64,000 nucleotides of DNA from Amphiscolops sp. MND2022 (Eukaryota): the NCBI GenBank assembly GCA_964187785.1, contig OZ076414.1, forward strand, positions 71,920,001 through 71,984,000, given 5' to 3'. The translations under genes were made by a program, and so were the position numbers. Shown here in pieces: positions 12,106 through 57,309 of the stretch. The first letter of the stretch is position 1; each line of letters starts with the position of its first letter. The notes beneath the pieces were generated by a model. The model had not been told where the DNA came from. It was given only the letters and a program-made list of their open reading frames with translations, and did not search any database.

Positions 12106-12107
12106 AT

Positions 12108-12830: not shown

Positions 12831-12944
12831 ATGCCCTCAGCTGACGATGAAGTTAAGGTCATTATTTTTCTTTGGTTTTTTTGCACTTATTGCTGGCCTC
12901 TATTCTTTGATAAGTTTTTAGTATCTTTTATACCTAAATTTTAG
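12831..12944 (+). CDS. Small hydrophobic ORF1 (37 aa) upstream of gag
   Basis: MPSADDEVKVIIFLWFFCTYCWPLFFDKFLVSFIPKF*; homologous to the 39-aa ORF at 35558-35677 with the same start and stop. Confidence 0.55.
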   Translation: MPSADDEVKVIIFLWFFCTYCWPLFFDKFLVSFIPKF

Positions 12945-12964
12945 TATATAACCCCCTTCTTCCT

Positions 12965-13195
12965 ATGCTTACAAGTATAGTTCTACCTCTTTTCGGACTA
13001 TTAATTATTTATCATACCTTTTGTACACTTATTGACAATATTCCTAAAAAATTTCTTCTCATCCATTGTACAGTACACATAATACTTTTCCCTGTCTTTG
13101 TAAATCAAATATTACTATACAATCCAAAATTCAATTCAAAATATCCTATTATACAGTATATCTATCCTCTATGGCAAACCTATTATTCTTACTAG
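12965..13195 (+). CDS. Small hydrophobic ORF2 (76 aa, two predicted TM-like segments)
   Basis: MLTSIVLPLFGLLIIYHTF...KFLLIHCTVHIILFPVFVNQ...QYIYPLWQTYYSY; colinear homolog in B at 35305-35538. Confidence 0.55.
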   Translation: MLTSIVLPLFGLLIIYHTFCTLIDNIPKKFLLIHCTVHIILFPVFVNQILLYNPKFNSKYPIIQYIYPLWQTYYSY

Positions 13196-14770: not shown

Positions 14771-15063
14771 GTTTTTAACGGTTCAATTGGTGCGAAAAAT
14801 TCACACACAGTAGTAAACAAGTTGCCAATGATAACTTGAACAAAACTGTCACTGTAAACTGAAACTTTGGCACCAATTTGAAGCGTCACTTACGTAGAAA
14901 GTGAAATCGTCCTAGGATGTTCTCACTCCTTAAGTACAGTACAAATTTGAACAAACTCATGCAAACCAACTCAAGCATACAATATCTGAAACAAACACTT
15001 TAGAACTTCTCAAGTCCAAAAGTGCAGGTATAAAAATTTTATTTTCAAAAATTCCTGGTTGAT

Positions 15064-15497
15064 TGTGATGCCATGATGCGTGTCCTCAAGTATTTTCTTA
15101 ATCTTCAAATATTATTAAACTCTTTACCTTACAACTTGACAGATGTAACTTAATCAAACTTGACTAGAATGCTGACACTTGAAGATAACTTTATTGATAC
15201 ATTGTGACAATCTTATTAATGACCTATCTTACTGTTGTCGCATTCAATTAATTTAAATGACTATAATCATTGATGATCTTGTAGAATATATCTACTTGGA
15301 GAAAAATAGGATCCTAACTAGAGAACAATTTCACCTGAGAAGAAGAACTTAACTGAGATATCAGAAGGATATTAGAACTTAGAACTAGCCAGTTACTGAC
15401 TTAGTAACTTGACGATTTTGCTGTTAAGTATCCCAGACTTCTTAGGTACTCCATCAAAGAAATAAAACACCTAACACACAACATTTTTAACAGCTCA
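15064..15497 (+). repeat. 3' LTR of element A (434 bp)
   Basis: TGTGATGCC...AACAGCTCA, preceded by TTCCTGGTTGAT as in the 3' LTR of B. Confidence 0.9.
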
Positions 15498-27119: not shown

Positions 27120-29000
27120 GCATTATGGAGGCCATTGTCCTTAACTGGTAGACGTCTCAGCTTGCTGACAGGCCTTGTGAGCTCACCGCACGAAGGTCTC
27201 ACCAATGCCATTTGTGCTAAGCCGTCGTGACCTTGCTTCAATTGCATCACTCGATCAAAACTCTACTGTAGTGGTGGAATGCCATCGTCTGTGATCAGTG
27301 CCACGTCATCAACTGAGAGGTTTGCACGCTTTGCCGTCATTTGCCTCGAGGCTGCGGTGATGCTCCATACTTAGATGACCATCGCTACCAGAATTGAGGA
27401 AGTAGCTGTTGAAGACTGCGAAATCGTTTTAATGGATGCCCGTGGACATCCATCTGTTGTAAGCAGGGTTGTGGGATAGCATCCAATTGGCTGCCATTGA
27501 CTATCATTGACGGAGTGATCGCAAAGATATGATCTGAGTTTTGTGAGAGCCATCAGTGGACGATTGTTCAATACTTGTTTCATTTGGCACAGAATGGTTG
27601 TCATCTCCTCGTAGTCGAGAATGCAATTGCCCATGACACTACGCAAGTGGTGCTTCATCGACTTCACCGCTGCTTCCCATAGTACGCCGAAGTTGGGTGA
27701 GCGAGGAGGAATGAAGAGCCATTCAAGGCTGCCGTATGATTGTACCCCAGCCCTAACCCCTTCGTCAAACGCGTTAAGGTCACGCCTTGCACCCACGAAT
27801 TTGGTTGCATTGTCGGACAAAATTTGACCTCGTCTTGCAATGAATCGTCTTAGAGCTGCCACCATGGCAACTGACGTCAATGTTGATGCTGCCTCTCGAT
27901 GGAACTGCCTTTGAAGCAAAATATAAAAACAACTACGTAACCATTGACACATTCAGTTCCATTTTTGAATGTTAGAGGTCCTGCGGAGTCGAGGCCTACA
28001 CATGAGAAAGCACGATCGGGAGCATCGATGCGACTGGAGGGCAAATCACCCAGCAGCTGCTGTGCAGGCCCAGAATTGGAGCGGAAGCACGTGACTCTCT
28101 TCTTGATGCACGCTGACGCCTTCTTAATTGCCTGAGTGACCCAGAATCGACGTGTCATATCCGCCACCGTTGCTGTGGGACCACCATGAAGGGTTCCTTT
28201 GTGGTCATCGTTGATTGCAAGTGTTGCCAGTTTGTTTCGGTGTGACACTAACAAAGGGTACCTCTGATCATCATTCATTGAGTATCTGTGAGTAGCTGTC
28301 GACCACGATGACACCGTTGTCCATGAATGGGTAAAGGGATGCTATTGAGGTCTTCGGGTTGATCGACTCACCATTTGAGAGGGTTTTGAACTCGGCTTCA
28401 AAGTGTACCATCTGATCTGCTTTGACACAGTGAAGTCATTGAGAATCGCATTCACTGTGTGGGGATTGGGTCCGTGATTTTTACCACTCTCTTGAAGTGC
28501 TTGTGTTGAATGGTAGGAGGAACTGGCAACACCATACGTCACACGAGTCATACGCAATTCTCGGATCTTGTCTGTCACGTAGTCATGCCACATAATTCGA
28601 TGGAATTCCCGATCTAATTAGTCTAAAGCCACTTGCCGGTCCAAGCAGAAGGCAGTCGTTGAGGGAACAGCCATTCGGAGACTTGCTGCTGGCATCAAAC
28701 ACGACACGTCGCTTGGTCGTCGTACTATCCTTGAAGACACAGAGATGGGGTGAACAATAGCACAAGCCTGAAGTCTGAGGAGCTTGTTCAAGATGGCCCA
28801 TATTGGTAATTCCTCTGCTGAAGTCACGATACTGCTGCTTTACATCATCGTCATCCTTGAGTTTTCGTTCCAAGGTCAAGAATCTCTGCTTGGATGCTTG
28901 AAAGTTGTTCGAAGGACAAGCCTCAGACTTGAACGATAGACGAAAAGATGCGGCCGTCATCTGCTACGTACGTCGTTCTGTTTCACAAATTGACGATTTT
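27120..29000 (-). mobile_element. Internally deleted BEL/Pao retrotransposon (RT N-part, integrase, DUF5641-like tail)
   Basis: QRFLTLERKL...PHLCVFKDSTTTKRRVVFDAS...SLNDCLLLGP; RVTYGVASS; LHGG...FW...GDLPSSR...GLDSAGP; LRRFIARRG..SDNATKFVGA..FIPPRSPNFGVLWEAAVKSMKHHL; TRPVSKLRRLP. The RT catalytic core and RNase H are missing at a junction near 28420. Confidence 0.9.
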
Positions 29001-29395: not shown

Positions 29396-29830
29396 TGAGC
29401 TGTTAAAAACTATCGTGGTTTTTGATCATATTTCTTTGAGTAGGTACATAAGAAGTCTTAGTTTCTTAACAGCAGTATCGTCTGAGATCCAAGATGGTAT
29501 CAGGATGTTACTAGTTAGCTATCTCAATTTTTTCTTTCTCTGAGATCTCAGTTAGCTCACTAGAATGAAACCGTTTTTCAGTCGAGACTCTGATTTTCTC
29601 CGAGTAGATATAATCTACAATAACATCAATGGGTATATATAATTAGATTGTCATGCTAATCAATCAAAAGCGACAACAGCAAGATGGGTTATAATTGAGT
29701 TGTCTTAAGTTATTAATAAAGTTATTTCAGAATGTTAATCTAGTCAAATGCAATTCACTTCGAAATGAAATGACATCTATTAGATTAGGTAACTTTCAAG
29801 TTCTTTGAGGACATGTATCATGGCATCACA
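29396..29830 (-). repeat. 3' LTR of element B (435 bp)
   Basis: Reverse complement reads TGTGATGCCATGATACATGTCC...AACAGCTCA. Confidence 0.9.
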
Positions 29831-30073
29831 ATCAACCGGGAAATTTTAGAAATTGAAAATCATTTCTGCACTTTGAGATTGAGGAGTTCTAGAGGTATTT
29901 TAGATGTTTTATGCATGAGTTTGTTTCAGATATCGTGTATATGAGCTTATTTTAGATATGAGTTCTGTTCTAAAATGTGCTGTACTTAAGAAGTGAGAAC
30001 AACCTATGACGATTTGACTTCTTACCTAAGTGACCATTCAAACGGGTGCAAAAGTTTCAGTTTCGGATGACTG

Positions 30074-33000
30074 TCAACTTGTTCTAGTTATTATTGACAA
30101 CGTGTTTACTACTATGGACTGATTTTTTGTATCTGCCATCGGTTTGTTTTGAAAAATATATCTACTTCGACATGAGTTATTCAGAGCTGAAAACTTTTCA
30201 AGTTGAAGAGCTATTTTGAGAAGTTTGTCAATGAAGTGTGAACAAACAATGGCGGGTTTTGAATCAAGGGTGAAGAAGTTTTGAAAAGTCAAAGTTCAAC
30301 AAAAGTGACTAGACGAGTGGAAGCCAGAAGCTTTGAACGATTGCAAGCTTCAAACATTGAACAATTGGGTGTACTGAAAGGTAAAGAAAATATTGTGTGA
30401 AAGTTGTTTGAAAACCTTTCTTAAACATTTTTTAGTTGACTATTGGGAAGTAAAACAAAAAGGTTTGAATCAGGTTTTGTAAAACTTTGTGTCAAAAAAT
30501 CTTAGAAAACTTTTGTACTGTACGGAAAACTTGTGTTCTAGAAAAGAAGTGGATTATAGGTGTATTAGAGAAATGTATCATACACAAAACAATGGTGGAT
30601 TAAAATGTTGTGGTTACAAGATAATTAGAGTATCGTTATAGACGCAATTGGGGGGTTATAAGAGATTACACTAGATGCAAATTTGGAAGACTATAAAATA
30701 ATATCAGGAATTCAAGATTACAGAAAAGTATGGTTAAGTTATAATTATTTATGATAAATAATTTCAACATTACAGTTACACTAGAGTTTGAAATTTGCGA
30801 TAAGTTAGACTTCAGTTCGGAACAGCTAGTGGTGGGAGACCAGTCAAGTGAGAAAGTTGAATGTTGGAGCGACGGCGGCATAGAAGAAAGAACAGTTCTG
30901 GGACGCGGTTGAAGGTGGCGGCGGTAGAGAAGAAAGACCATGTGACGATGTTGACTGCAAGAAGACCAGTTGGGAGCAGTTGAGGAGTGACGACCAGAAG
31001 TGACGATAGTGAAGACCAGTTCTGACAAAAGTGAAGATGTGGGCCAGAGCTGCAAAATGACGATGGATGATGGTGACCATTCGTGAAATAAGAAGATAGT
31101 GAAGATGTATCAGCGTTTTGTGTAGAGGTCGAGAACTAGTGAAACAACATGTTCCAAAACAGCATCATCAATGAAGGATGACGAAAAAGATGTGAATGAA
31201 CACGAAGAGTAAGTAGAGTTTGAGTTAGAATCCATTGTTTAATAAAATGGATGTGGTTTTGGCGTGTTCACTTGGTGAACTTTAGGATCGTATTTTTCCA
31301 ATTTTTGGGTGTAACCAAAATGAACTAGAGCGTTGTTAAAGGCGTCGCATGCTTCTGCGATTGTCATCTGGAAATATTCGTCTTTAGAAGTAAAGGAAGA
31401 ATTGATGACAAAAACCATGTCCGAAGTGGTTTCGCAGATTGCGATTTTGGGTCCTTCTAGGTGGATGCGGGCAGATTGCTCGAAACCTGTGTTTTTCTTC
31501 TTTTTTTGCAAACAATGTAGGGAACTTTCAGAAACGATCTCTTGTAGGATTGGTGACTTGATCTGTATTGATCTCTAAAGATAATTTGAATGTCATTGTA
31601 TGGAAAATTGCTGCTTTTAGGCTGTTAGCCTTTGTAGTAGAGACAAATTTCGTGGTTGTTATAGAGTCTGCTGGAGCCATGTCGTGAATTTTGTGAGAAG
31701 TCTTGGTAAAAGGGCTTGATGTGTGCAGATTTGGACCAAGCAGGCAAAGAAGGAGGAGGAAGAAGAATGGATGTTTCTAAAACAAAGGAGTTCTGAGAAA
31801 AATGACAACAATTTAGCAATATTCGTTCAAAAGTTAGGTTCTAAAGAAGTGTATATTTGGGTGCTAATACATTTTGTATTGTATTTGTGAAAATGTCTTT
31901 GTATTTTGTAGTAATTCGTCTGATAAGAATTAAAGATAAGTTTACACGTAATGTAGGAAAATATAGCATGTATTTGAGGTTCGAGGAAGGAGTTAAAGAA
32001 CAAGAATGCTATATGTACAGTAAGTTTTTTAAAACTAGGAGTTTTTCAGTTAAAAGTTAACAGTTGTGTCAATCAACTAAATGCAAATTTTGATAGGAGT
32101 TACAAAAATGTTATCAAAATATTACCTGGAATGTAGTTTAAAGTTTGAATGTTCCATAGTGTACCAGAGGAGAGGAAAGTTAAAGAAATTTGTATAACCT
32201 GGAGCGAGATCTAGTGAAGATTAATAGATTGTTAGTGTTTATAGATGTTAGTGTAGAAGTTTTTTGTTTTTGATGATTGGGATTATGCGTTGTGAGTCTA
32301 GATCAAGTGATTGTATACGAGTTTGTGTATTCGTTCAAAGGAATGCACTAGGTGTGTGAGAGTTGTGACAGCGGAATCAGAGGAGTTTTGTTCATATGGT
32401 TCCACGAAGTTATCGATTTCGCGGAGAGTACGATTATTGAGAACGTATGAGAGTTTTTCAGGAGCATTTTGAATTGGTGAGGTGTGTTCAGTAGTAGGAG
32501 ATTTCGTTAAGTCTTATGTTCAGTTTGTACCATAAAAGAGATAACTTTGGCAGAGATAACTTTTAGCATTTCATTATATGAATAAGATTGTTTAGAGAGA
32601 GCAGTATAGTAGGATTTATCTTTATCATCAAGTGGAGAAGAAACTAGATGTTTGATGACAGTGAGAGGTTTCACTATTTGAGTGGGAATATTGCAAGGCA
32701 AAAGAAAAACGTCAAAATGTATGAGATATTTTTGAGGTACAATAAGTGGACCTGACGTATCATTAAAAGGAAGCAAACAAAAGTATTGTTTTATAGGATC
32801 ATAGTTACGTAGATAGCCAGTTATACGAGAATAATCTATTGTGTACAAGTTAGTCATTGTATACTGTGAAGTATATTTGTAATTGACAAAAATATAGTTC
32901 TGGGGTTTGGAATGTTGTAGAAATTTGGTGTACGTTTGATGATGAGAAACTTTTTGAGCAACTAAGAGAAAGGAAGGATCACTTTCGTCGGCCTTGAGAT

Positions 33001-33573
33001 CATATATTTAACGGACGTAGAAAGTTGAATTGGAACGAGAAGATTTTTATTCAGTTATCAAGTCAGTATTGGTATGGAGACATGATTTTAGAAGCAATGG
33101 AAGTAAAAAACCTCGATTTTGTCATATAGACGAAATGTATAATCAGTAGGATACATATATAGAGAAGTGAGTTGTGCTTTGAAAATGATAATGTCTTGTG
33201 AGAGAAGGGGAATCAAATCATCATCTCTATTTGTAGAAAGTGAAGGTTTAGAAGGTAATGCAGGAAGAAGTACGGATGATGAAAGAAAGAGAGGATCTTT
33301 CATAATTTCGTAGCGTTTTTTCGGAGGTGGTGGTGTTTCGGTTGTATTATCTGGAGGAGTAGGCACTTTGGGAGTGTTATGTTCATGTTCCGCTTGTTCG
33401 GTATTGTGTGTAGGGTTAGTATTCGTCTGAGTTTGATACATATTTTCGAGGAAGAGAACAGGAGAATCATTAAAAAGAGGGGTTGTAGTGAGATCAGATG
33501 AAGTTTGTTCGAGTTGTGTTTGAAGGTCTATTTGTGCATGTGTCATGGTGAAACTTTTTGAAAAAGAGGACAC
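30074..33573 (-). pseudogene. Decayed accessory ORFs downstream of env in element B
   Basis: Consistently minus-strand ORF pieces (33088-33573, 32507-32857, 31625-31819, 31239-31511, 30666-31055) joined by single stops or frameshifts; no family recognised. Confidence 0.5.
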
Positions 33574-33787
33574 TAACGAGTAGGTTTATCGACTTTTTGA
33601 GGAGCAGGTACCAAAATACGAAGTCGAAGAGTAGGAGTGTCAGGTCTATTGACAGTTATTTCAAGTGTAGAAGAAAGCTCAATTTGAAGATTGATTCTAT
33701 TTTACCAGTAGTGAAGTAGGTCGTAGGTTTATAATATTTCAAGAGTAGTGGAGTGTTCGACAAGATGGAGACAAAATGAGTTGGAGT

Positions 33788-35027
33788 TCAAAACGATGGT
33801 GGCGGAAAATGATAGTTTGTTTTTGAATACATTTTGATGGGGGTGTCAGTGTCAGGATTGACAAGAGTGTTATTAAGTAAATTGTCAGTTGGAGTAGTCA
33901 GAGTGTCATGTTGAGTGGTGTTAGTAGTTGAATGATTAGGCAAAGTCGGATGTTGTTCTTGTGAAGCAGGAAGTGTAGAGGTTTTGTGATTGATTTTGTA
34001 TTGAAGAAACAGACGTTTTTTTGGGAATAATTTAAATAGTTTCATATGAAGTTTATTTGGACGTTTTGTATAGAAGATTGGAGGGGAAGTAATACCAGTA
34101 TGGTTATTAATTGAATTAGTTGAAATGTCAGGAAAGTTAGCTAAGGATTTAGAAGTTTTAAGGGGTAATGTGGGTTTCTGATGATGAGTATCTCTGCGGT
34201 CATTGACCATTTGAGCTGTAAAAATGTTGAAGGAACCTTGAGCTATGGAACTAAGAATGGTAATGTTTTGTTTGAGATTATATTTAATTGAAATTGTTTT
34301 GTATAGTTTTACGATGAGTGTTAATGTAGCTTGAACAAATAAGAATGTGGAGAAAGGAATCTGAAATCCATGTGGGTGTAAAAAGAGAAGTTAGGTTTAG
34401 AAATTTGTCATGTAAACCAATACGTAATGTGTTGTGAGGATTTTCATGAGGTGAATTTGTGTCATAACCAGGTGTATTGGATGAAATAAAGGAATAACTA
34501 AGGGCTTTTCCCAAAAGTTGGAGTGTAGAGTCAGAATGTTTTGAAAATAAAATTCGATTCCGAAAATGATCTAGTGCAGCATTAGAACATATTCCAGCAT
34601 CGTGTGCTGTAAAAGTATTTGGGCGTATTGTAGTTTTAATTTGAGAAGGAGTAAACATTAATGGTTGTTTTCGTTTATTAGGTTCTGGTCCAAGAATAAA
34701 AACATTTTGGTCATCAGAATCAAGGTCGAGCTCAATAATGTTACGAGGATTATTATCACATGCAATAGGAGTAGCATAATCATAAGTTTGTCTTGTAATT
34801 GGATCTACATACATAAGTGTACCTTCAAAATGTATAGGAATACAATCGAAGCATCGATCAGCCTTATATAAAGGAGATAAGAAATGTGGGCAGTCGTACA
34901 GCCAGGCAGTTGAGCCTTCAACGTATAAGAAGTTGCTACGATTTCCTGTGAGAAGGAAACCAGCAAGTTGAGGGTTTTGTACAGACATTGCAAGTATGGT
35001 AAGGAGTTGGTTACGTTCTAATTCATT
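33788..35027 (-). pseudogene. env: env C-terminal half: chuvirus/gB-like class III fusion glycoprotein remnant with TM region and tail
   Basis: ELERNQLLTILAMSVQNPQLAGFLLTGNRSNFLYVEGSTAWLYDC..DRCFDCIPIHFEGTLMYVDPITRQTYDYATPIAC; after a frameshift a hydrophobic STFLFVQATLTLIVKLY segment continues into ORF 33788-34210. Confidence 0.75.
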
Positions 35028-35304
35028 GGATATTGTTAATTTGATTTAAAATACTTTGAAAAGGTATTTGTGATTGGATAATTTCAAGTGTTTTATAACG
35101 AAAGTAATATTGGTGAGAATCATAATGTTCTCGTATTAAAGGAAAAGTATGTATACTATGAGGTTCTGTCTCAAATGAAAATGGGTTGGTGTATTGGAAG
35201 ATTAAGTTATGTAAAAATGGTATTACATCTTGAATGAGGGAACGTTTTTGACGTTATTGTGAAGGGAGTAAAAAAGGAGAAGGAAGCATTTGTTTAAATA
35301 ATAG

Positions 35305-35538
35305 TTAAGTTGAGTAATATTTTTGCCATAGAGGGTATAGGTATTGTAGAAGAAGGGATTTTGTATTGAATTAAGAGTTATATGGAATTATTTGATCTAC
35401 GAAAACAATCTGAAGGAAAACTATTAGTATTGTACAGAGAAAGAGAAGGAATTTATTTGGGATATTTGTAATAAGTGTATTAAATGTATGATAAATGCTA
35501 AGTAGTCCAAAAAGAGGTAGCATTAGACTTGTGAGCAT
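35305..35538 (-). pseudogene. Small hydrophobic ORF2 homolog in B (premature stop after 55 aa)
   Basis: MLTSLMLPLFGLLSIYHTFNTLITNIPNKFLLFLCTILIVFLQIVFVDQIIPYNS*FNTKSLLLQYLYPLWQKYYST*. Confidence 0.55.
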
Positions 35539-35557
35539 AAAGAAGAGATGTTATCTA

Positions 35558-35677
35558 TTAAACTTTGGGTATGAAAGGTACTAGAAATTTGTCAAAAAAG
35601 AGCGCAATACCTGCGAGAAGTGCTAATGAGAACCAAAGGCATATGATAAGTTTAACTATGTCATCAGCTGAAGGCAT
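35558..35677 (-). CDS. Small single-pass membrane ORF1 (39 aa)
   Basis: MPSADDIVKLIICLWFSLALLAGIALFFDKFLVPFIPKV*; about 20 uninterrupted hydrophobic residues; homolog in A. Confidence 0.6.
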   Translation of the reverse strand: MPSADDIVKLIICLWFSLALLAGIALFFDKFLVPFIPKV

Positions 35678-36402
35678 TTATATATATAAAATTATTTATT
35701 TATTTATAAAATTTATTTATTTAAATATATATATATATATGGGATGAAAAGGATGTTGTGAAAGTGTTTTGGAAAGGTATGGTTCAGATAGTTTGATTGT
35801 ACGTTAAGTTATGAATGTAAAAAACTTGGTATGTAAAATATTTGGATCCGTTACAGTGGTTTTGAAAAAGTGAATTTAGGTAGATGTTATAGAAGAAATA
35901 AATGAAGTCAGACGAAATGTTGTAGAAAACGTTTTCGTATTGGATGTGTGCCAACTGCTAGAGTTGATCCAAGTGGCTAGAACCAAAGTATTTTTACAGG
36001 CAGGAATCACTGGATAGCACTATAGAAGAGAGAAGAAAGAATGGGGAATGGAGGAGGAGAAGTTTTGAGCAGAAGACCTACACGTTTCGCACGTCTGCGG
36101 TAGGAACGAAAAGAGAAGAACAAAAAAAGCCAACACGAATTCACAATATGGTGGTTGGAACAAAAAATTTTCAAATGACAGGAATTACGTTGGTACGTAG
36201 CCAGAACCAAAGCAACACGGATCAATTTCTGTTAGAAATTGGTTGCATTGTTGAGTTAATAACTGTAGATAACGGTAAGAAGAGGAGAAACGGTATGTCG
36301 AACAAAGAAGTATCTGATTAAAAAATTCAGAAAAGATGTACAAGAAGAGTAAAGTTGTTGTAGGAACGGGAGAGAAAAGAGAATTTTCGTGATCGCATCA
36401 AT

Positions 36403-36841
36403 TGAGCTGTTAAAAACTATAGCGGCTATTGATCTTATTTCTCTGAGTAGGTACATTAGAAGTCGTAGTTTCTTAACAGCAGTATCGTCTAAGATTCAAG
36501 ATGTTATTAAGATGTTACTAGCTAGCTATCTCTATTTTTACTTTCTCTGAGATCTCAGTTACTTTACTAGAATGAAACCGTTTTTCAGTCAAGACTCTAA
36601 TTTTCTCCGTGTAGATATAGTCTACAATAACATCAATGATTATAGATAATTAGATTGTCATGCTAATCAATCAAAAGCGACAACAGCAAGATTGGTTATA
36701 ATTGTGTTGTCTTAAGTTATTAATATAGTTTGTTTCAGAATGTTAATAATTTAGCCAAATTCAATTTACTTCGAAATGGAATGACATCTATTAGAATAGA
36801 TAACTTTCAAATTCTTTGAGGACACGTATCATGGCATCACA
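36403..36841 (-). repeat. 5' LTR of element B (439 bp)
   Basis: TG...CA, followed by AT-TGATGCGATCACGAAAATTC. Confidence 0.9.
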
Positions 36842-39046: not shown

Positions 39047-39289
39047 TTTCAACTCTGACTCATCATTAGTTTGTTTCGATGCTACATTTTATGAATAGTT
39101 TGTGAACAACAATCACTTTTGGTTGGAAATTTCACAGAGAAGTCTTCATTGACGTTATGCTTTTACAAATAGAAATTACTTGAAATGAATCAATCGTAAC
39201 TTTGATTTATCCAACCCATGATGGAAAAAAGAGATTCTTTCAATTAAATCCCCAGTTTTCCCCGGGGCCCACGCCAGATAACCGTGAAA
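39047..39289 (+). repeat. Copia 5' LTR (TTTCA...TGAAA)
   Basis: Direct repeat of 44017-44259 with one G/A difference. Confidence 0.95.
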
Positions 39290-39303
39290 GGTTATGGGCC
39301 CAG
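39290..39303 (+). promoter_or_regulatory. PBS GGTTATGGGCCCAG, complementary to the anticodon arm of initiator tRNA-Met (half-tRNA priming type)
   Basis: Exact complement of CTGGGCCCATAACC in tRNAiMet; the same PBS is used by Drosophila copia. Confidence 0.9.
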
Positions 39304-39884
39304 GGAAAATCCCCACCTGCTAAAAACGATTGTCTGAAGTTGCCTATCTGGAAAGAACCCAGCAAAAAAAACCCGAAAACATCTTCCAGTTTTCAATTTT
39401 TCCAAAATGTTATGGAACATTGAGTACGCGAAAAGTCCAAAAGTTTGCTGAGCAACATCCTACGTCTAACCAACACAAAGGACCCGTTGTCTTGAAGGCA
39501 GAAATTTTTTAAAAAAGAACATTAAACTCAAATTTTCTTTCAAATTGTGCTAAAAAAGTCAGTAGTTGAAACGTAAATTTTTGGGTCCATTTCCATTTTG
39601 AAAAATTTTATAAAATATAAACGGTTGAACTGGCTCTATGATAACGTTTTTAGTCCAGTAAGCCAATATCGAACATAGAATTGTTCGCTGGTTGTGATAA
39701 ATTTGAAAACAAAAAACTCATTTTGTGACTTTTGTTCGAATTCCAATGAATGGATAATTCTATCCAATAGTCGAAAATAATTCACTGCAGTAGTACATTT
39801 GTAGATTTGACATTATTTTTGTTCAATTCCATACTTCCTTGATTGTTTGTTGTCTGTTGCTTGTGTTGTTGAGTGCTGTAGCGT

Positions 39885-42800
39885 ATGATGATGGCTGATA
39901 ATTTGTTTGAAGACGGTGTTGGGAAGCTCAGTCGTGTCCTTTTCAGTGGAAAAGAGGATGATTTCACATACTTCCAAGAACAGTTTGAGGCTCGTATGTA
40001 TTGTTTGAAATTGTTGGATGTAATGGAACGTCGCGTAACAGAGAAAGAGATGGAACAAAAGTTGAGAGAAGGAACTAATCAGGAAGGACGTAACAAAGCA
40101 AAGGAGAAGGCTGAAAGTATGATGAAAGATAAGAAAAGAATGATCTGGTGTGAGTTGGTGCAGGCGTTAGACAAAACTAATGTCTTGTACCTGAGGTCTT
40201 ACAAAGGCGACGGACCGAAGGCTTGGGAGGTACTACAAGCAAAGTACAAAAGTTATGAGAGAAACTAACAAGTCTGCGGAAGTTGCCATCGGAGAACATA
40301 ACTGAGTACATTTGTCGCGCGGAGACATGTCAATATGAGTTGAAACAAGTTGGAGAGGCTGTAACAGAGAAAATGTTAGTCGCAATGGTTTTGAAGGGAC
40401 TCCCACGAGAGTATGAGACGTTCGTGACGCTGGTCAAGTTCAGTTGTGAGTCCAAGAGCCTCGATGAAATCAAGAGAGACCTGATTAATTTTGAGAGTGA
40501 CAGGAAAATGAAGATCAAGGGAGATGTCAGCGATTCGGTATTGTACGTGGGAAAACCAACACGAATCAAATGCTACAACTGTAATGAAGAAGGTCACAAA
40601 GCAATCAATTGTCGCAACCAAGATAATGTTTTTTGCTCCAACTTTCACAAGAAAGGTCATTTTACCAAAGACTGTAGAGCCAAACGACATGGCAACCAAG
40701 AAAACAGTAACCAAGGCAATAGTAGGTTTTGCTCATGGTGTAAAAGAAATGGCCATACAGTGCGAAACTGTTTCCAGAAAAACAAAGCAATGAGAAGTGA
40801 GATCATTTGTGACAAATGTAAAAGAAAAGGGCATAAAGCGGAGGATTGCTTTGCTGGCAGGACATCTGAAAAAGTGAATTTTGTTGGTGACGAAGATGGA
40901 AAAGACGAATTCAGTTTCTTCATAAACACTGGTTTTCGTGCTGTTTTTGTCATCGACTCAGGGTGTAGTAATTACATGATAAAAGATAAACACTTTTTCG
41001 TTGATTTGGACGAGAACGACTATGGTGCCTATGAATGTGCTAACGGAACTAATTCTAAAATAGAAGGCAGAGGAAGAGCTGAGTTCTATGCAACCAAGAG
41101 TAATGGTGATTCTGCAAAAATTATTCTCAAAGACGCGCTGTATACACCAAGAAATGGTCAGAACCTGCTATCCGTAGCCAAGTTGAAAGAAGCCGGCGCT
41201 TCTTTCCATTTTGCAGAGCGCGATGAGATAGTAACGAAGGATGGAACCATTTTTGCGTTGGAACCAAGAAACAGTAACCAATCCCACAATTGACATGGAT
41301 AGCAATCATTGTAACCAAGAGGAGCAGTGTTTTGCATCAAGTCTGAAAGTTTGGCATGAGCGCTTGGGGCATACTAACTACAACGACTTGAAACGGTTAT
41401 CAGAACATGTCGAAGGGATGAAGATAAGTAACAAAGATGAAGCCATTTGCGGATGTTGTGAAACAAACAAATCTAAAAGAAGGCCGGTACCAAAAGATAC
41501 AATTACTCGTGCAACTGAGGTACTCGAAATTGTTCACACGGATGTTTTGGGTCCTATTGCGAACGAGTCACCTGAGAACTTCAAGTATGCAATTGGTTTT
41601 GTGGATAGCTTCTCCCGATTCATCAAAGTGTACTTCATGAGAAGCAGGGATGAAGTTCTGGAAAAATTTCAGCAGTTTTGTTCTGATATAGGAAATCCAC
41701 GCATGGTTGTCAGTGATGGTGCAAAGGAATTCACATCTTCTGAGTTCAGATCATTCTGTCGTAAGCGTGGAATAAGACATGAAACATCGGCACCTTATAC
41801 CCCGGAGGAGAATGGGAAAATTGAAAGAGTCTGGGGAACAGTGGTTGGAATGACAAGATGTATGTTAGACAATGCCAGTTTGGGGAAACAATATTGGCCG
41901 TATGCACTCAATTATGCATTTTACGTGAAGAACTTCTGTTTACATTCTGCAATTGGAATGACACCATATGAGCGCATGTACGGTGTGAAACCCAATATTG
42001 AATTTTTGCGAACATTTGGTTGTACGTCCTATATCTTCATTGAGAAGCAGTTTCGTAAGAAGCTGGACAAAACAGCGGAAGTCGGAGTGTTTCTAGGCTT
42101 CAGTGATAACTCCAAAACCTATATCGTGGGAATACCAAAAACAGATGGATCACTGAGAATCATGAAATCACGAAACGTTAAATTCGAGGAGGGAAAGATG
42201 TTCATGAAGCAACATGCGATTTATGGTCCAAGTTCATCAAATAACCAAGACTATACAGAAAACCAAATTTCATCACATGACATCCAACCAAATCCAATCA
42301 GCACTAACGACAACAACACTAATAGCCACGTCAGTCGAATCCATAGAAAGTCAACAATTGACGAGCAATTCAGCTTTGTAGCGGAGGTTGAAGATACTCT
42401 AATTTTGAACGAAGAGGTACCAAAATCTGTCAACGAAGCTTTGAAGGAAACAAGTTGGGTGAAAGCAATGGAAGACGAACTCCAATCGTTGAAAGACAAT
42501 AAAGTGTGGGATCTTGTGGAGCTACCAGACGGGAAGAATTCGATCGGCAGTCGTTGGCACTTCACAGGAAGTTCGGACCGAATGGAAAGCCATGTCGACA
42601 TAAGGCAAGGTTCGTGGCAAAGGGATTTAGTCAACGTGAAGGAATTGACTACAAGGAGACATACTCTCCCACCGCTCGCTTGTCAACAGTTCGGGTAGTC
42701 ATGAACATTGCTGCACAAAATAGTTGGCAAATAAAGCAGCTCGACATCAAGACAGCCTATTTGAACGCTAATGTCGATGCCGACATTTTCATGAAACAGC

Positions 42801-43981
42801 CTGAAGGTTTCGAGGAGAAAGGCCCCAACGGAGAAAAACTTGTTTGTAAGTTGAACAAAAGCTTGTATGGTCTTAAACACTCTGGGAGAAACCGGTACTA
42901 TACGTTGAAAGCTTTTCTAGAAAAAATTGGTTTCGTTGTATGTGTCCATGACAGTTGTTTGTTTGTGAGGCACGTGAATGATTGTGTGAATGCTGTTGTG
43001 TGTGTGTGGGTTGATGATATCATTTATTGTGGAAAGGATGATGACTTTGTTGATTGGTTTGAGAAAGAAGTAAAAACAAAGTTCCGTGTGAGTGAATGTT
43101 GTATGTTGAGTTGGTTTCTGGGAAAGAACGTGACTGTGAATGAAACTTCGATTACTGTTAACCAAGAAAAGTACATTGAGAATCTATTGAAAAAATTTGG
43201 TATGAGTGATTGTAAGGCTCTTAGTACACCGATGGCTGAGCATGTGAAACTGACCAAAGACATGTGTCCTCTGAAAGGTAGTGACGAAGAAAGAGTGATG
43301 AGTGAACGTAACTATCGTGGTTTAGTTGGAAGTTTGAACTATCTGTCTTTGTCAAGCAGGCCTGATATTGCTCAAGCTTCGCATGTCCTCAGTTCCTTTT
43401 TGGAAAACCCTGGCGAGCAGCACTGGGTAGCGGCTAAACACGTTTTGAGATATTTACAGAGAACAAAGGATCTGTGTCTGACGTTTAAAAAGCGTGACAG
43501 TGGAATGGGCCTTGTTGGTTATTCTGATTCTGATTGGGCTGGAAATGAAGATCATCGTAAGAGTACATCCGGTTATTGCTTCAAGTTGAATGAATCATCA
43601 GCATGTGTGAGTTGGCTGAGTAAAGTACAAGGTACTGTAGCCACATCCACTGCTGAAGCTGAAATGAATGCTTGTGTGAGTGCTGCCCAAGAGTCTGTTT
43701 ATCTGACTGGTTTGTTGCGTGAGTTGAGTGTGCCTGTTGTTGAACCTGTATGTTTGTACGTTGACAATCAGGCAAGTATAGAATTGAGCAAAAATTCATT
43801 GCACCATGGTAAAACAAAACAATTTGCCACAAAACTACATTTCATTCGCGATTTATGCGAAAAGCAAAAAGTGAAGTTATTATACACTCCAACCGACAAA
43901 CAACCAGCGGATATTTTGACCAAAAGCTTGGGAAGAAACAAAACCCAAACATTTCGAAAATTTTTGTTAGGGAACATGTAG
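39885..43981 (+). pseudogene. gag-pol: Copia gag-pol polyprotein split by three frame disruptions (near 40270, 41270 and 42560)
   Basis: CCHC knuckles; FVIDSGCSNYM (protease); WHERLGH..CGCC (pre-integrase); VHTDVLGP/SDGAKEF/PEENGKIER (integrase DDE); KARFVAKGFSQ, QLDIKTAYLN, SLYGLK, WVDDII (RT); YSDSDWAG..RKSTSGY..STAEAE..DNQAS..ADILTK (RNase H). Confidence 0.95.
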
Positions 43982-44003
43982 GTGAGGGTCAAAATGTAGC
44001 GCC

Positions 44004-44016
44004 GAAAAGGCGGGGG
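44004..44016 (+). promoter_or_regulatory. Polypurine tract GAAAAGGCGGGGG
   Basis: Abuts the first base of the 3' LTR. Confidence 0.85.
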
Positions 44017-44259
44017 TTTCAACTCTGACTCATCATTAGTTTGTTTCGATGCTACATTTTATGAATAGTTTGTGAACAACAATCACTTTTGGTTGGAAAT
44101 TTCACAGAGAAGTCTTCATTGACATTATGCTTTTACAAATAGAAATTACTTGAAATGAATCAATCGTAACTTTGATTTATCCAACCCATGATGGAAAAAA
44201 GAGATTCTTTCAATTAAATCCCCAGTTTTCCCCGGGGCCCACGCCAGATAACCGTGAAA
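44017..44259 (+). repeat. Copia 3' LTR
   Basis: Direct repeat of 39047-39289. Confidence 0.95.
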
Positions 44260-49061: not shown

Positions 49062-49288
49062 ACTGAAGCCCAATTTTTCAGACCCTATGTCAGATAACGT
49101 ATCAGAAAAGTATCAGACCAAGGCGATTGCTAGAGCGACCGATGATATCTCGGAGCAGATGACACGGGAGCATGGCCCAACTCCAACAAGACCCACTGCG
49201 AGGAGGAAGTAGAAATAGGCTGTCTGAATGATACGGGACAGTTAAAGGCACCCAGCAGGGCAAGCGAAAGCACCGCACACACCACAGA

Positions 49289-52200
49289 GTGTTGCAACAA
49301 ATGGTTTATATTCTAGGCAAGAACTACGCCAGGGCACGCATGCAAGAAGCTACAGCTTCCCGACCATTGGGGAAGGGAAAACAGGTACGGCCCCCAGCCC
49401 TCCTAGCGCAGACGAGTGCAACGGGACCAAATGGTGACTCCCGTTCATCTTCACCTTCACCCAAGGCGGCATCAGCCCGATCTTCAGCATACAGAGCAGT
49501 GCACGAAACAGCTAAGTCCCGCAAGGCGCTGTTAGATGCACAAATTGGTGTGAAGCAAGCTGCTTCCCAACTATCCGAGAGAAAAGCAAGGTGCGACGGA
49601 GAGCATCAAGCAATAGTGGAAGAAATTGAGGCTGGCCTAAGTGAACTACGATCTTTAACCAAACGACAGGAACAGGGGCAAGAGTATCAAACTGCGTGAA
49701 TGGACGCTATGGGCTATCGGATGGCGGAGATGAAAGCTATCTGATAGCGCAAAGAGAGCTTCGCATGGAGGCACAAATGCAAGAAGTGTGCACGCAGATT
49801 CAGGCGATGGGGACCATGCTCCAAAACGTCCAACCTAGACCAACGGGTAGCATTATCAAAGATCTATTGCAGGAGACTGAGATATCACTGCCAAAAGCCA
49901 CGAAGAATGTCACTCTCAAACCAATGGAAGCGTGATACCCGTAGCAAAACCTTCTGGTTCCAAGCAATCACTGACGAATTATCCGCCTCACCTACTCACG
50001 CTTCCACCCCACTCACCTAATGCAGAGGCCGTATCGACGAGCAAAACTATCTCGCCAGCAGCGTTACTTCACACGAAAGAACGTATTAGTGACATGATAA
50101 CATTTGAGACCTCAAGTATGGGTATCACCGGCTTAAGGGCGCCCACATGCACTACAGGCCCGAGAGACCGGACGTGCACCAGCAGGCTGACTGAAGTTAC
50201 GAGCACCTTCCAAACTGCGAATGCAACCTTGGAGGAAACAACCGCCGAATTTCACACTGCGGACGACGGGTTGCCCCCGGGCAACCCCTGCGCCAGCACT
50301 ACCAGACTTAAAGAAGCGACGATCCCGGAAAACTCTGACGATTCCATCAATTCCACACGGGACAGTAGCCACCAACCACCTGCCGCCAATGAAGAGAAAC
50401 ATATATCCCCGGAACAACTTAGAAACTTAGAACCACCGAGGCGATATCCAAGGCCATGTCAAAAAAACTTGCACAGTTGATTGCCAACAGAGACCAGACG
50501 AGGGTCCGACCTACGGTTTACAAGGGCACCAAGGAGAATGGCCAACTGCGATTCTGCTGTGACTTTCGACCACTCAACGAAGTAACCATCAAAGACGCTT
50601 ATCCACTGCCACGCATCGACGAAAGCCTTTCACGATTGGGTAAAGCAAAAACCTACCCTAGTATCGACTTGGCCTGGGCATTCTGGCAAACACCTGTCCG
50701 GAACGTCAATCGTCAGAAAACAGCCTTCGCCTGTGAACTTGGACTGTTCGAATGGCGTCGTATGCCTTTTTGTATGAGTAAAGCATCGGCAACAATTCAA
50801 CATGCCATTGCGCGAGCGCTACAAAGAATTGTGAATCGTGAAGGGAGCATGGTCATAGATTACATTGACGATATTGTGATTGCCACCGAAGCCCTTGAAG
50901 ACCATATGGACAAACTGCGTGAAGTATTCCAACGTCTACGTGTGGCGGGTTTCAAGATGAGAGTCTCCAATTGCGAGTTCATGAAATCTGAGATCTAATA
51001 CCTGGGTCGAGTGGTATCCGCAGATGGTATCAAGCCATATCCAAAAGCCGTTAGCAAACTGATAGATTGGGACATCCAGCGAACTAAAACAGAACTACAG
51101 AGTTTCCTGGGATTTGCCAATTACTATCGCGACTTTATCCCTTGGCATGCCAAACTCGTAGCCCTGCCACATGCCATCACCGGCACAGGCTTTCCATTTC
51201 TGTGGGGGGAGGAACAGCAAGAAGCTTTCAATAGCATTAAGGTGGCCCTGATGGTCCTAGACACTGATGCGAGTGATGTAGCTATCTCGGGTATTCTTCA
51301 CCAGTGGCAAGAACCACCTGAAAGTCGGAAGTTGCAACCAATTGTGTTTAGAAGTAAAAAACTCACTCCCACACACTCCAAGTACGGAGCCCCAAAACAG
51401 GAAATGTACGCTGCTTACTATTTCATCTTGAAGAACCACAGCTATTTTTGTCCGCGCAAGTTCACATTGAGAGTGCACAACCAGGCCTTTTCATGGTAAA
51501 AAAACGTTTTCAACGGACCAAACGATCATCGGCCGCTGGACAATGGCTCTCGAGAAGTATCACTTTAGCATCGAGAATCGGCCTAGAAGGCAGCATCGGA
51601 ATGCCGATGGTCTCAATAAGAGAACCAACGATTACAAGAAACACGAGAGACACCTGAAATGTTTACCTCCAATTGTCGAGAAGTGGAACTTCCGATCCCA
51701 ACACGACAACGACGAGCTCCCGTTGGTCCCATGGTTTGACGATCATGGACGAGTAATACCGGATCACCCCGATTTGCCTGTGCATCTTCAGAAGCTGACT
51801 AACCACCCCCACCTGCAACAACGGTAATTGCCCCACGCAAAAGAACAAGCAAGGCGCGATGATGCGTGACAAAGCGTGATGGCTCCCCTACCGACGCTAC
51901 CAACGCCAGAGTTATCAATGCTTGTCGACCGATATTCAGAATATCCCGCAAACTGGTTAGAGTTGACTGAACAACATCAACGAGATTGTCTACTACCCAC
52001 ACATGTTGCCAACGTACCATCAAGACCCACCTACCCATTGACTGGAGAGGAGAAGCAAGCAACTAGCACCGCGCTAGTACGTGTATGGCCTCCGTGGACA
52101 CCACGAACACGGCAACATCGTTCATGGTTTGAAGGACTTATTGCTAGCGCAAAAACAGCGTTTTGGCCATCAAGAAACTGGTAATGCAGGAGTCAATCGA

Positions 52201-54377
52201 CCATATCTTTCCCGAAATTGTGTGTGCGTTTGCTAAAAACTAATACAAGCAGAAGAAGAACCTTTTGTTGTTCAATACCAATGGAGTGCTGTGCGTCAAG
52301 TATCCCAAGAGCCAAAGAGCAATGCATGAACATCCATGCATGATCATGATACCGCAGCTGTACCAACACGAAATACTATTCAAAGCTCACGATGCAATGA
52401 GCCACCAAGGTATTGCGAAGGTTCTAGCGAGAATACAGGAGCGCCACACCTGGGTCTGGTATACGCCGAACCATTGGGCAGTATGTTAGCCAGTGTATAA
52501 CACGTCAACAAGTGCGCGAAAAGCCTGGTGACGTGCGATTCCACCTAAAGAGCATCCAAAGTGGCTATTTCAATGAGTTGGTACAATATGACCACTTGAA
52601 GGTTTGTCCTTTTCATGATTGAAACACTGGAATACTGGTTATCATTGACCATTTAACAAAATTTGCCGAAGCATTGCCATGCAGTCATGGTGAATACGAT
52701 GCAGTGACTACCTCTAAGCTGCTGTGCAATAATGGTTTGCTCGTTATGGTACGTCAACAAGAATGCAATCCGACAATGCGCCCAACCTCACCGCAGAAGT
52801 ATCTACTGAACTTATGAAGCCGTGACAAGTAACCAAAGTGACCTCCACCGCTGGCCATCCCAGAACCCAAGGGCTAGTTGCACGCCAAAGCCGGACACTG
52901 CTGATTCTACTGCGTGTGTTTTGCTCTCGACGAATGCGAGACTGGGATCAGTATTTGGACAAAGTAATGGGTGCGTATAACTCTACGCGCCATGCCACTA
53001 CTGGATTTTCTCCGTATATGCTGACTACAGGCATGGAGAAACCGATACCACTCAATTTTTTGTATCCGGAATTCGCCACGCAGTCATTCGAGTCACATGA
53101 GGCATTTGTGGATCATTTCTTAGCCCGACAAAAAGAAATTCATGATTTGGTTCGACGCAACGCACACCAAGCCCAACAACGACAGAAGCTCAAGTACGAT
53201 TGGGTTATTCACGCCCAAGCATACGAGGTCGACGAACCAGTATGGATATTCTGTCAATACATCCCGATGAAAAGTTCTCCCAAGTTGATGAGAGCATGGC
53301 GTGGTCCCCACTAAGTAGCACGACTGCTACTTGAAGGACGCGTTTACATACTCGATGCGGGCCTGAAGGTGCACTTTGAACGACTGAAACCGCACCATGG
53401 TGGACCAACAGAATGGGCTGCTGTCATCATGGATCCCGACCCAGAGCAGTCTCAAGAAGAGGTGCCAGACGACGCTTTGCGGCCCTCCTACCGTGAAAAA
53501 GAACCAATATCAGAAGCGAGGAACGCCTCTTTACCTTCCCGACAACAACATTGGATGGACACTAGACTACGCACGCGTATGCGTGCTGGCGGTAGTCGCC
53601 TTCACTACCAACAATTCGACTATTCGTCAACTGATTCTGGTGACGAACGATCCGATGTACTCATATCAAGTGCTCAGGCCAACCCCAACGAGAATGATAT
53701 CCTAACACTGCCAAAGAGTGAACCCGCCCCTATTCTCGAAATCCCAACCTCACCGCTACCACCTATGGAGGCTCTGTTTTCGGAAAATGAGGCGGCGCCA
53801 GACGCAAAGGCTGACACGCCGGATCACCCTGCCCGTGCATTGATCGACAGTGCAGGCACTTCATTGGCCGGCACGTCTGCTCCATTACTGACGAATCCCT
53901 CGCTCACAGACATGTTGAGTAACTTTCCCATTTGGCCGCAGATAGACGGTCACTACACTCCAGAAACGAGAAACAGCGATGCGGAATTGCCTATATCTGA
54001 CGATGAGAAAGAGCCTCTCCCTGTTACGACGATTCCTACTACTGCTACCACAGCCGTAGCCAAGCCCACCCATGCTCAAGAAAGGCAACCGAACCGAAGA
54101 CCGCGAGGACGTCCCCCCGGAAGAGCAAAGCCACGTGCATCAAAATTACGTGACCGTCCTAAAGAGGTGAACTTAAAGGCAAGAGAGGGCGTCCCAGAGG
54201 CAGACCACTTCGGGCAATATATATTGGCCCCGAAACCTGCACTAGTCCCCACCGCACCCCTTCCGTGGACACCGACTCGCCTGCTCCCAGTGCCGCAGGA
54301 ACCTCAGATCAAGCGCCACTTCTAGAATCAACCAATGCACGCTATGGTCTGCGACGCGATCGAGTTCCCAGATATCG
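49289..54377 (+). mobile_element. Element D: decayed Ty3/Gypsy of a GC-richer family (gag-like N-terminus, RT, RH, IN, long C-terminal extension); capsid and protease deleted
   Basis: LRFCCDFRPLN..KDAYPLPRIDE, SIDLAWAFWQ, KTAF..GLFEWRRMPF, YIDDIVI; LDTDASDVAISGILHQ; HQGIAKV; YDHLKV..IDHLTKFAEA..SDNAPN..HPRTQGLV; KLMRAWRGPH; no LTR recognised. Confidence 0.85.
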
Positions 54378-55763
54378 TTGCTAATTGAGGATTCTTAACT
54401 GACATAGCTAAGATTGTTAACAATTGTGTTCTTTCTAATTCACATACTAGGTGAAGAGTGTTTAATTCTTGTACTGTCATTGATTTAAAAACTTGATTTA
54501 TTGTGAAGTCGTTTTTTGTGTTGATATGAGCATTATAGTCCAGAGTGGCGAAGTTGTTTGATACATTTAGTGCAGGAAATAAATACTTCTTATTAGAAGT
54601 ATCAAATTGAATCTTTCCACTAATTTTTTGATCTATTATTGAGTGTGGTTTCGGTTGTCCATTTTTCATATCAAAACCATCTAAGTATGTAACAAAGATG
54701 TCGTCGTATTGTGTTGAATATAATGTTTCTGGTTTTCCACAAAAGGTTTGTGCAATTGGGTATATCTCAAATCGAGAAAGCCTTGGATTTTCTACAGTTG
54801 ATTGTGGTGTTTTGACATTGGGATAATTTGTTCCTTGTATTCCTTTGGTTTGAAGGTTTTGTGTAATGTTTGAGGATTTGATAAAGTTATCAGTTTCTAT
54901 CCAATATCGGTCTTTAATCCTTGTCATTCTTCCAATGAATTCTCGTAATCGAAATATGAGGCAAAGTTTTCATTGTCCACTTGAATGAGAACATGGTAGT
55001 ATGTTTCCAACGTGAATCATTTGGTTGTTTTTATCATCATATGTTATTTCAGCATTAGTTATTCTGAGTTTCCATTTTTTTGGGTGATTAAATGTTATCT
55101 GTCGCTTCTACATCTTGAATAACTATTTTGTGTGAAGTTAACTATCCAGTCTTGGTAATGTTTATCATATACGAATGTTCCGATATGCCAAGCGTGTAAT
55201 TTTTCTCCTCTAAATGGTTGTTGAACTTGTTCAATTTTTTTTGGTAATCACTGTTATCAAAAAATGAGAAGGAACTTTGTTTATTGTAACTATTTAGTTC
55301 GTTACTATCGGTTGCGTTTGAATAATTTATCATATTTTTGCATTCAACGGCATCGAGTATATTTGGAAGTTCTAATGTATTTTGTCCCCAGTGTAAACGA
55401 TCATATCGTCTACTAGATGTAAAGGTTTGGGAACACCAAACTATTTCGGTTTTTGTATATGCTTCACAATTAAAGGCTTGATACTTTTTGATTTTGCTCT
55501 AAAATATACTGTTGCTTGGGTTTTTGTGTGTTGTATATCTGAGGGTGCTTGTTTACATGGTTCAACATTTAGTAAGCTAAACTGTCTTAAGTTGTTTTGT
55601 TTTGCACAATCTTAATGGGATACCATAAAGTTCAAGATATTTGGGTCTTGTTCTGAAATATGTTTCTCTGGATTTGTTGTATCAGCTTTAGGGACTGAAC
55701 TGATGTAGAGTTAACTATGTGTATTATATATGCAATATATGTACTGAGAAGTATGTTTATCAT
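54378..55763 (-). pseudogene. env: env N-terminal two-thirds: chuvirus/gB-like class III fusion glycoprotein (frameshifted)
   Basis: Signal-like MINILLSTYIAYIIHIVNS; LYG.DCAKQNNLRQFSLLNVEPC; FNCEAYTKTEIVWC; LDAVECKNM; FCGKPETLYSTQYDDIFV; LDYNAHINTK; CELERTQLLTILAM. Confidence 0.8.
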
Positions 55764-57250: not shown

Positions 57251-57309
57251 TCTTTTTAATGTTTCTTTTTTCAGGTTACTATCTATTACTATTTATCTCA
57301 AACTTTCTC

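Follow-up and report, generated by a model that had tools for sequence, protein, structure and literature searches.

The window (the whole stretch of DNA that was analyzed, 64 kb) consists of repeat-rich eukaryotic DNA and contains three copies, here denoted A, B and C, of one Ty3/gypsy lineage (Table 1). Copies A and B possess paired LTRs with TG...CA ends, and the conserved order of the components is LTR-leader-ORF1-ORF2-gag, with separate stops; a 4-bp target-site duplication (ATTA) was identified at copy A and none was seen at copy B. Judging from their LTR pairs, which are about 90% identical, both copies are old, and the LTR-pair divergence of about 10% would translate into roughly 5% decay per copy since insertion. 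In copy C, gag is followed by pol, with the order RT, RNase H, integrase; the 5' end of this copy, together with any small ORFs, lies beyond the window edge. The homologous proteins P0201 and P0222 map onto all three copies; both carry gag, and P0222 also carries RT. By its LTRs, gag-pol order and env, the element can be classified as an env-carrying Ty3/gypsy element, that is, an errantivirus in the broad sense.

Table 1. Coordinates of the three element copies in the window and of their components
Feature	Position	Strand	Description
Copy A	11751-15497	+	LTRs 90.6% identical; 4-bp ATTA duplication; large internal deletion
5' LTR, copy A	11751-12105	+	target-site duplication ATTA upstream; primer-binding-site-like TGG motif downstream
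ORF1, copy A	12831-12944	+	start and stop same as in B; 37 aa; six internal codons out of frame
ORF2, copy A	12965-13195	+	open, 76 aa; most homologs have one codon more
gag 5' part, copy A	13211-14790	+	N-terminal domain plus low-complexity linker, broken by stops and frameshifts; remainder of element deleted
3' LTR, copy A	15064-15497	+	90.6% identical to 5' LTR over 320 bp; followed by ATTA
Copy B	29396-36841	-	LTRs 90.2% identical; deletion fuses gag start to 3' part of env
3' LTR, copy B	29396-29830	-	90.2% identical to 5' LTR
env 3' part, copy B	33788-35045	-	broken; 34287-35045 matches PF24664; extension to 33788 inferred from next frame
gag start, copy B	35029-35289	-	in frame with ORF2; large internal deletion joins it to env
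ORF2, copy B	35305-35538	-	77-codon gene with in-frame stop at codon 56; terminal stop codon 78 at 35305-35307
ORF1, copy B	35558-35677	-	intact, 39 aa; predicted single TM helix (residues 10-28) with small-residue face
Leader, copy B	35678-36402	-	between LTR and ORF1; ATG-poor, 2 ATGs ahead of ORF1
5' LTR, copy B	36403-36841	-	
Copy C	54328-64000	-	diverged relative extending past the window edge; contains the capsid region of gag, RT, RNase H, integrase and env

The env of copy B matches the Monjiviricetes fusion glycoprotein family of Pfam (PF24664; E-value 7.4e-11, 41.1 bits against a cut-off of 27), which is of the chuvirus type, class III. The env segment of copy C yields no Pfam match of its own but matches the env of copy B. 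Between env and the 3' LTR, copy B contains about 3 kb of additional broken ORF remnants (30700-33600, minus strand; for example, 33088-33585, 32507-33007 and 31239-31418), which show the strand bias of the element, have no Pfam match when three frames are searched with X at the stops, and suggest the presence of further accessory genes. Copy C similarly carries Ser/Thr/Pro-rich ORF remnants, with no convincing Pfam match, between integrase and env (55760-57053, minus strand). In the homologs P0134 and P0142, which are rearranged copies, env is fused with ORF1 and Gag with ORF2. In copy B, this same part of env is fused with the gag start near 35030-35045, which could mark a hot spot of recombination. 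The window also contains a young LTR element (39047-44259, plus strand; 243-bp LTRs 99.6% identical), the ORFs of which we take to be Copia-like, as well as remnants at 27371-28963 (minus strand) and 49232-54325 (plus strand) that presumably belong to a BEL/Pao element and a second Gypsy family. The combination of these BEL/Pao-like and Gypsy-like remnants with an env-bearing Gypsy element suggests an animal host.

The first-pass annotation had described two small membrane-protein ORFs upstream of gag, conserved between copies A and B. The 39-aa sequence quoted there for ORF1 in copy B is confirmed, as are the coordinates stated for ORF1 and ORF2 in copy A. Conservation in copy A holds for the start, the stop and the mostly synonymous character of the changes; it does not extend to the reading frame, which is shifted by deletions of 2 nt and 4 nt near 12880-12900. 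When the six shifted codons are read in the frame of copy B, they encode four identical residues and two conservative changes; because these codons still follow the frame of B, the deletions can be attributed to later damage or an assembly error. The N-terminus of ORF1 is short and acidic (a 9-residue N-terminal part; in each of four full-length sequences that were profiled, the protein contains 2-3 K/R) and is followed by an uncharged segment, residues 10-28, with a Kyte-Doolittle 19-mer value of up to 2.7 and charged residues in only 4 of 532 alignment cells. This segment is apolar apart from its small residues, among which A22 and A25 are invariant in all 28 alignment rows, while 27 of these rows have G23. 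Beyond residue 28, an acidic-basic pair leads into the short amphipathic stretch that ends the protein. Position 2 is occupied by P, S or T in 28/28 rows, that is, there is no myristoylation glycine. ORF1 is predicted to be a single-pass membrane protein.

ORF2, which had been given as a protein of about 76 aa conserved in both copies, aligns between A and B at the start and the terminal stop, but in copy B the frame is interrupted at codon 56, leaving an open part of only 55 aa (35371-35538). Hence the ORF pair is not intact in both copies as originally claimed: each window copy has one broken ORF (ORF1 in A, ORF2 in B), and such breaks are explained by the age of the two copies. The AlphaFold model of ORF2 (mean pLDDT 75; pTM low, at 0.47) consists of helices at residues 2-25, 29-54 and 60-76. 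Helix 2 is a clear TM segment (17-residue Kyte-Doolittle mean of at least 1.6 in 55/56 alignment rows) with a polar stripe formed by S/C35, T36, T39, Q43 and D48. Helix 1 is marginally hydrophobic (the same threshold is reached in 43 of the 56 rows), so that ORF2 may be a single-pass protein. The strong TM segment begins around residue 30, yet residues 2-19 are also hydrophobic and helical; charged residues occupy 8 of 1008 cells in positions 2-19 and the same number in positions 30-47. Helix 3 is aromatic and is not a TM segment; its Y68 and W71 are invariant in 56/56 rows. Glycine is absent from position 2 in all 111 proteins starting with ORF2, so the MGxxxS/T myristoylation motif does not occur, and no polybasic patch was detected (99 of the 102 full-length sequences never exceed 2 K/R in any 10 residues). 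The model predicts a hairpin with an aromatic tail. The membrane-protein character ascribed to both ORFs is therefore supported, by hydropathy in each case and by the structural model for ORF2.

The identification of the long downstream ORF as gag was also confirmed: PF03732 is detected in P0201 and P0222, and the homologs continue into pol. The proposed overlap of ORF2 with this ORF was an error: in both copies, the gag ATG (13211 in A, 35289 in B) lies five codons past the ORF2 stop, in the same frame, and the apparent overlap is due to a later 1-nt frameshift in the gag of copy A. The start methionine is common to 70 of the 75 top homologs counted (120 listed, 135 found). Gag begins with M-L/I-P rather than M-G and thus lacks an N-terminal glycine for myristoylation. 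Its N-terminal domain of about 260 aa (P0201, P0152 and P0222; window 13211-14790) is conserved and belongs to no known family; between it and the capsid domain lies a linker of some 350 aa, enriched in S, T, Q, N and P. The structural model of the N-terminal part (pLDDT 34) is too poor for a fold search. In the homologs, gag and pol run in one frame, and one Gag-Pol cluster comprises 2407 members.

The differences between copies A and B show the pattern expected of coding sequences, in agreement with the statement of the first-pass annotation that they are mostly synonymous or conservative. In ORF1, 6, 2 and 19 differences fall on codon positions 1, 2 and 3, respectively, over 36 codons (gap and stop codons excluded), so that 19 of 27 changes affect the third position (pN 0.09, pS 0.80; Fisher P 9e-11); the ORF1 dN of 0.10 is probably explained for the most part by the decay of about 5% in each copy after insertion. 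For ORF2, the corresponding counts are 19, 10 and 32 over 75 codons (32/61 changes at third positions), with a dN/dS ratio of 0.19 (P 3e-7) that matches the value of 0.20 for the Gag N-terminus. The dN/dS comparison that had been put forward as a check thus gives, for the A/B pair, ratios far below 1, and the reading of the ORFs as chance frames is rejected. Among the controls, the two frames computed for the leader gave ratios of 0.79 and 0.58 (P 0.15 and 0.007), and those for the LTR 0.99 and 0.66; the remaining two sense frames of ORF1 and ORF2 showed no selection signal. A weaker mirror of the signal appears in the in-register antisense frame (0.33 and 0.47), as expected because the third positions coincide; this frame contains 5-7 stops over ORF2 but none over ORF1, and we therefore read the sense frame as the gene.

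These codon tests are built on a single pair of decayed copies, and two further analyses bear on the same question. In a neutral simulation (1.0 substitution per site, 1000 runs), the frame stayed open with its ATG in 2% of the runs for ORF1 and in 0.7% for ORF2, with a mean amino-acid identity of 19%, compared with the observed 29/36 (81%) and 49/74 (66%), respectively. Independently of the A/B pair, variants common to at least three homologs are more conservative than singletons, with mean BLOSUM scores of 0.60 versus -0.91 for ORF1 (P 9e-5) and 0.22 versus -0.64 for ORF2 (P 0.0015), where the P values are indicative since the rows are related; the corresponding scores are 0.44 versus -0.62 for the Gag domain and -0.51 versus -0.76 for the Gag linker. 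Judged by these substitution patterns, both ORFs are real genes, under purifying selection, of a Ty3/gypsy element that is present in high copy number.

All 56 candidate clusters for ORF2 proved to be homologous. They comprise 342 member sequences in sum, all of them unnamed ENA proteins, with 46-70% identity to the ORF2 of copy A, and 46 of the 56 clusters are 75-79 aa long (26 of 77 aa, 15 of 79 aa). For ORF1, 19 representatives were found, with 53-87% identity. Since only frames kept by the gene caller are visible in such a search, it cannot yield the rate of frame loss. Viral and metagenome contigs, searched with the alignments of ORF2 or Gag, yielded no related DNA loci; as the search of these other collections produced no relatives, the family as known so far may be confined to a single host lineage. 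Neither ORF1 nor ORF2 belongs to a family in Pfam or PHROGs (best E-value 0.02 or weaker), and PDB sequences gave no match for them (best E-value 0.79) or for the Gag N-terminus. In the ESM Atlas, ORF2 retrieved only two sub-threshold bacterial hypothetical proteins (0.77 and 0.76) and the Gag domain had no usable match; Foldseek comparison of the ORF2 model with viral structures gave 0 of 88 listed matches at an E-value of at most 0.001. A prediction for the ORF1-ORF2 complex in which the alignments were not used scored 0.01, which is evidence neither way. In the openly accessible literature that was searched, which for bioRxiv comprises the main texts, no description of this ORF pair came to light. 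By these comparisons, ORF1 and ORF2 appear to be a hitherto undescribed pair of accessory genes for membrane microproteins in a Gypsy lineage that bears env.

The leader of about 725 nt contains 3 ATGs before ORF1 in copy A and 2 in copy B, and over the leader and the ORFs together the ATG depletion is mild (8 versus 12.8 expected in A, 9 versus 11.6 in B). At position -3 of the ORF1 and ORF2 ATGs, both copies carry a pyrimidine, so that these starts have weak contexts; the gag ATG has an A at -3 only in copy A. Successive ORFs lie 15-20 nt apart; ORF1 and ORF2 are separated by 19 and 20 nt in the two window copies and by variable distances in the relatives (13 joined proteins), which implies that the two are normally separate proteins. 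In seven relatives (P0005, P0009, P0122, P0127, P0128, P0136 and P0141), ORF1 with an intact C-terminus runs in frame into ORF2, often with Tyr at the stop position; these joins might represent either sporadic stop loss or a fused lineage whose three-helix product would measure about 124 aa. At the ORF1 ATG, the sequence identity of A to B climbs; directly before this ATG, copy B (and only copy B) has an AT-rich, near-palindromic stretch (35678-35740, minus strand). RNA folding around the stops and around the start of ORF1 revealed nothing common to both copies (z from -0.1 to -1.8). The best splice-donor-like motif common to both copies (7/9 consensus) is located in the leader, at 36188 (minus strand) in B, with matching sites near 12315 and 12365 (plus strand), a tandem duplicate, in A; this is a candidate env donor.

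The small number of leader ATGs, the weak start contexts of both ORFs and the short spacing fit leaky scanning or re-initiation, by which ORF1 and ORF2 would be translated from the unspliced genomic RNA; sharing this RNA, they would appear together with Gag-Pol. For these two accessory genes, we favor, with a probability that we put at roughly 45%, a role in helping the enveloped particle to assemble at a membrane, bud from it or escape through it. This role is favored because the capsid needs an Env-bearing membrane, because Gag lacks the N-terminal myristoylation glycine, and because the constraint on the two ORFs equals that on the Gag domain. We propose that a Gag of this kind would require a membrane-side helper: the single-pass helix of ORF1 could pack against a partner via its invariant small residues, ORF2 could form a hairpin whose helix 2 bears a polar stripe and whose aromatic tail lies at the membrane surface, and the two might supply a membrane-side function such as the gathering of Env and Gag, membrane curvature or a viroporin-type leak. 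In enveloped viruses, small membrane proteins, such as alphavirus 6K, HCV p7 and coronavirus E, aid egress; hydrophobic viral microproteins equally often counter host restriction. ORF2, with the polar face of its predicted helix 2, matches the viroporin pattern of a small protein with one or two TM helices, at least one of which has such a face. The viroporin or budding/host-antagonist role suggested in the first-pass annotation is a reasonable inference; no sequence or fold match points to any particular function.

Antagonism of host restriction, in which the membrane microproteins, like Vpu, would bind and misroute a host membrane factor, appears unlikely. Vpu engages tetherin through a small-residue surface, and ORF1, a small single-pass protein, displays such an AxxxG/AxxA face, comprising the conserved residues at positions 22, 23 and 25. 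However, conservation of both ORFs is strong and even, with no sign of rapid change, and ORF1 is almost devoid of a cytoplasmic tail that could accommodate adaptor motifs.

It is quite unlikely that ORF2 functions as a part-time membrane anchor of Gag, produced by read-through of its stop to give ORF2-Gag. Glyco-Gag and the signal-bearing Gag of IAP are precedents for a Gag with a membrane leader. In A, in B and in all 6 joined proteins among the 264 fetched, gag shares the frame of the ORF2 stop, the distance from the stop position to the Gag methionine is constant in these 6 proteins, and the stops of the 77-aa and 79-aa subfamilies are two codons apart in the gag frame. Such placement, however, has a 1 in 3 probability by chance and may simply be inherited. 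There is no continuous ORF2-Gag frame in A, B or most homologs, where a stop intervenes; as for a read-through signal, the 15 nt downstream of the stop differ strongly between the two DNA copies, and no stable RNA structure was found after it (z -0.5 and -1.1). Joined ORF2-Gag forms are rare (5 clusters of at least 234 aa among 8000 candidates scored, one of them a rearrangement) and have different residues at the stop position, as sporadic stop loss would give.

A cis-acting role seems comparably improbable. The nascent hydrophobic chains would recruit SRP and bring the genomic RNA to the ER, and the ORFs, acting as uORFs, would meter Gag-Pol translation. Both ORFs do sit on the gag mRNA, and there is a precedent in Ty1, for which the available text of PMC3945221 describes SRP-linked translation that nucleates assembly sites. 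Conservation is nevertheless residue-specific beyond hydrophobicity (Y68 and W71 of ORF2, the C-terminus of ORF1), which indicates mature proteins with partners.

Very little speaks for ORF1 or ORF2 being a cell-cell fusogen similar to the FAST proteins or to sORF2 of MDG1 elements. The location upstream of gag on the sense strand is that of MDG1 sORF2, the size of which (about 70 aa) is also similar, but ORF2 has neither Gly2 nor a basic cluster, ORF1 has the N-terminal part of 9 residues and the K/R content of 2-3 given above, and the element has its own env fusogen. Still harder to sustain is the possibility that a spliced env mRNA has ORF1 as its first coding exon, from which it would obtain the start and the signal peptide, as the available part of PMC12992720 describes for a short exon upstream of gag in ZAM/Beagle. 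Residues 1-25 of ORF1 do look like a signal peptide with small residues at its end; against this, the synonymous-only pattern extends to the ORF1 stop codon, the common donor-like sites inside ORF1 and ORF2 score at most 5/9 (the best, 7/9, being the one in the leader), and in copy C a separate candidate ATG with a hydrophobic leader is present for env near 55730, an assignment that is uncertain given the broken frame. Finally, chance ORFs passively carried in a T-rich leader are an extremely improbable explanation: although one ORF is broken in each window copy and T-rich DNA yields hydrophobic translations, the dN/dS ratios, the frame controls, the neutral simulation and the conservation of shared variants all contradict it.

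Returning to assembly and egress, a more specific scenario can be formulated that we consider rather unlikely in its entirety, namely a "complex" invertebrate retrovirus-like Ty3/gypsy lineage with a leader that encodes a specialized membrane module unprecedented in this group, in which ORF2 would be a p7/6K-type hairpin viroporin and a Gag anchor switchable by read-through, and ORF1 its single-pass partner, both acting beside the chuvirus-type fusogen. ORF1 and ORF2, which are as constrained as Gag, are small, natural and easily expressed proteins with which roles in assembly, egress and host antagonism could be tested; they bear on the way in which the capsids of non-insect env-carrying Ty3/gypsy elements reach the membrane and exit the cell. 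Surveys that are restricted to gag-pol-env, or filtered by myristoylation, overlook accessory genes that fall under the ORF-size cut-offs.

Among known systems, alphavirus 6K, HCV p7, HIV-1 Vpu and coronavirus E resemble ORF1 and ORF2 in size, in their one- or two-helix form and in belonging to the genome of an enveloped particle, but neither ORF has a sequence match with them, nor does the ORF2 model have a fold match. The first-pass annotation did not know such ORFs as typical Gypsy features; a precedent exists, however, in the MDG1/412-group Ty3/gypsy elements of Drosophila, which have sORF1 and sORF2 between the 5' LTR and gag (10.1101/2025.03.14.642691). According to the available text of that source, the likeness consists in two tandem small ORFs under selection on the gag strand, the second of which is hydrophobic and about 70-80 aa long. 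The differences are substantial: MDG1 sORF1 is a nuclear protein of about 110 aa with a helix-turn-helix-like structure, whereas ORF1 has 39-40 aa and is hydrophobic; MDG1 sORF2 has one TM segment, usually a myristoylation motif, an ectodomain of about 30 aa and a polybasic patch (10.1101/2025.03.14.642691), whereas ORF2 has neither such a motif nor such a patch and, in place of an ectodomain of this kind, may have a second TM helix. MDG1 elements are described there as lacking env, whereas the element analyzed here has a class III env; MDG1 sORF2, the one worked-out small-ORF system, replaces env, and here two unrelated membrane microproteins coexist with it. ORF3 of the bdelloid element Vesta is likewise an extra membrane-protein ORF of an unknown family in an invertebrate LTR element, but in the available part of PMC5408684 it is a protein of 220-230 aa that occupies the env position and replaces env, in contrast to proteins of 39 and 77 aa encoded 5' of gag in the presence of env.

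The available main text of PMC13524379, which deals with the gB-type env-carrying Ty3/gypsy "errantiviruses" of invertebrates, gave no match in a search for small, accessory, extra, other or upstream-of-gag ORFs, and three short motifs of the present ORF family are absent from its 7 text supplements. By its organization, the element analyzed here fits this group, with which it shares LTRs, gag-pol-env, the order RT-RNase H-integrase and a class III fusion protein, and it differs from the gB-type errantiviruses, as described in that text, in having two 5' microproteins, about 600 extra N-terminal residues in Gag and ORF remnants around env.
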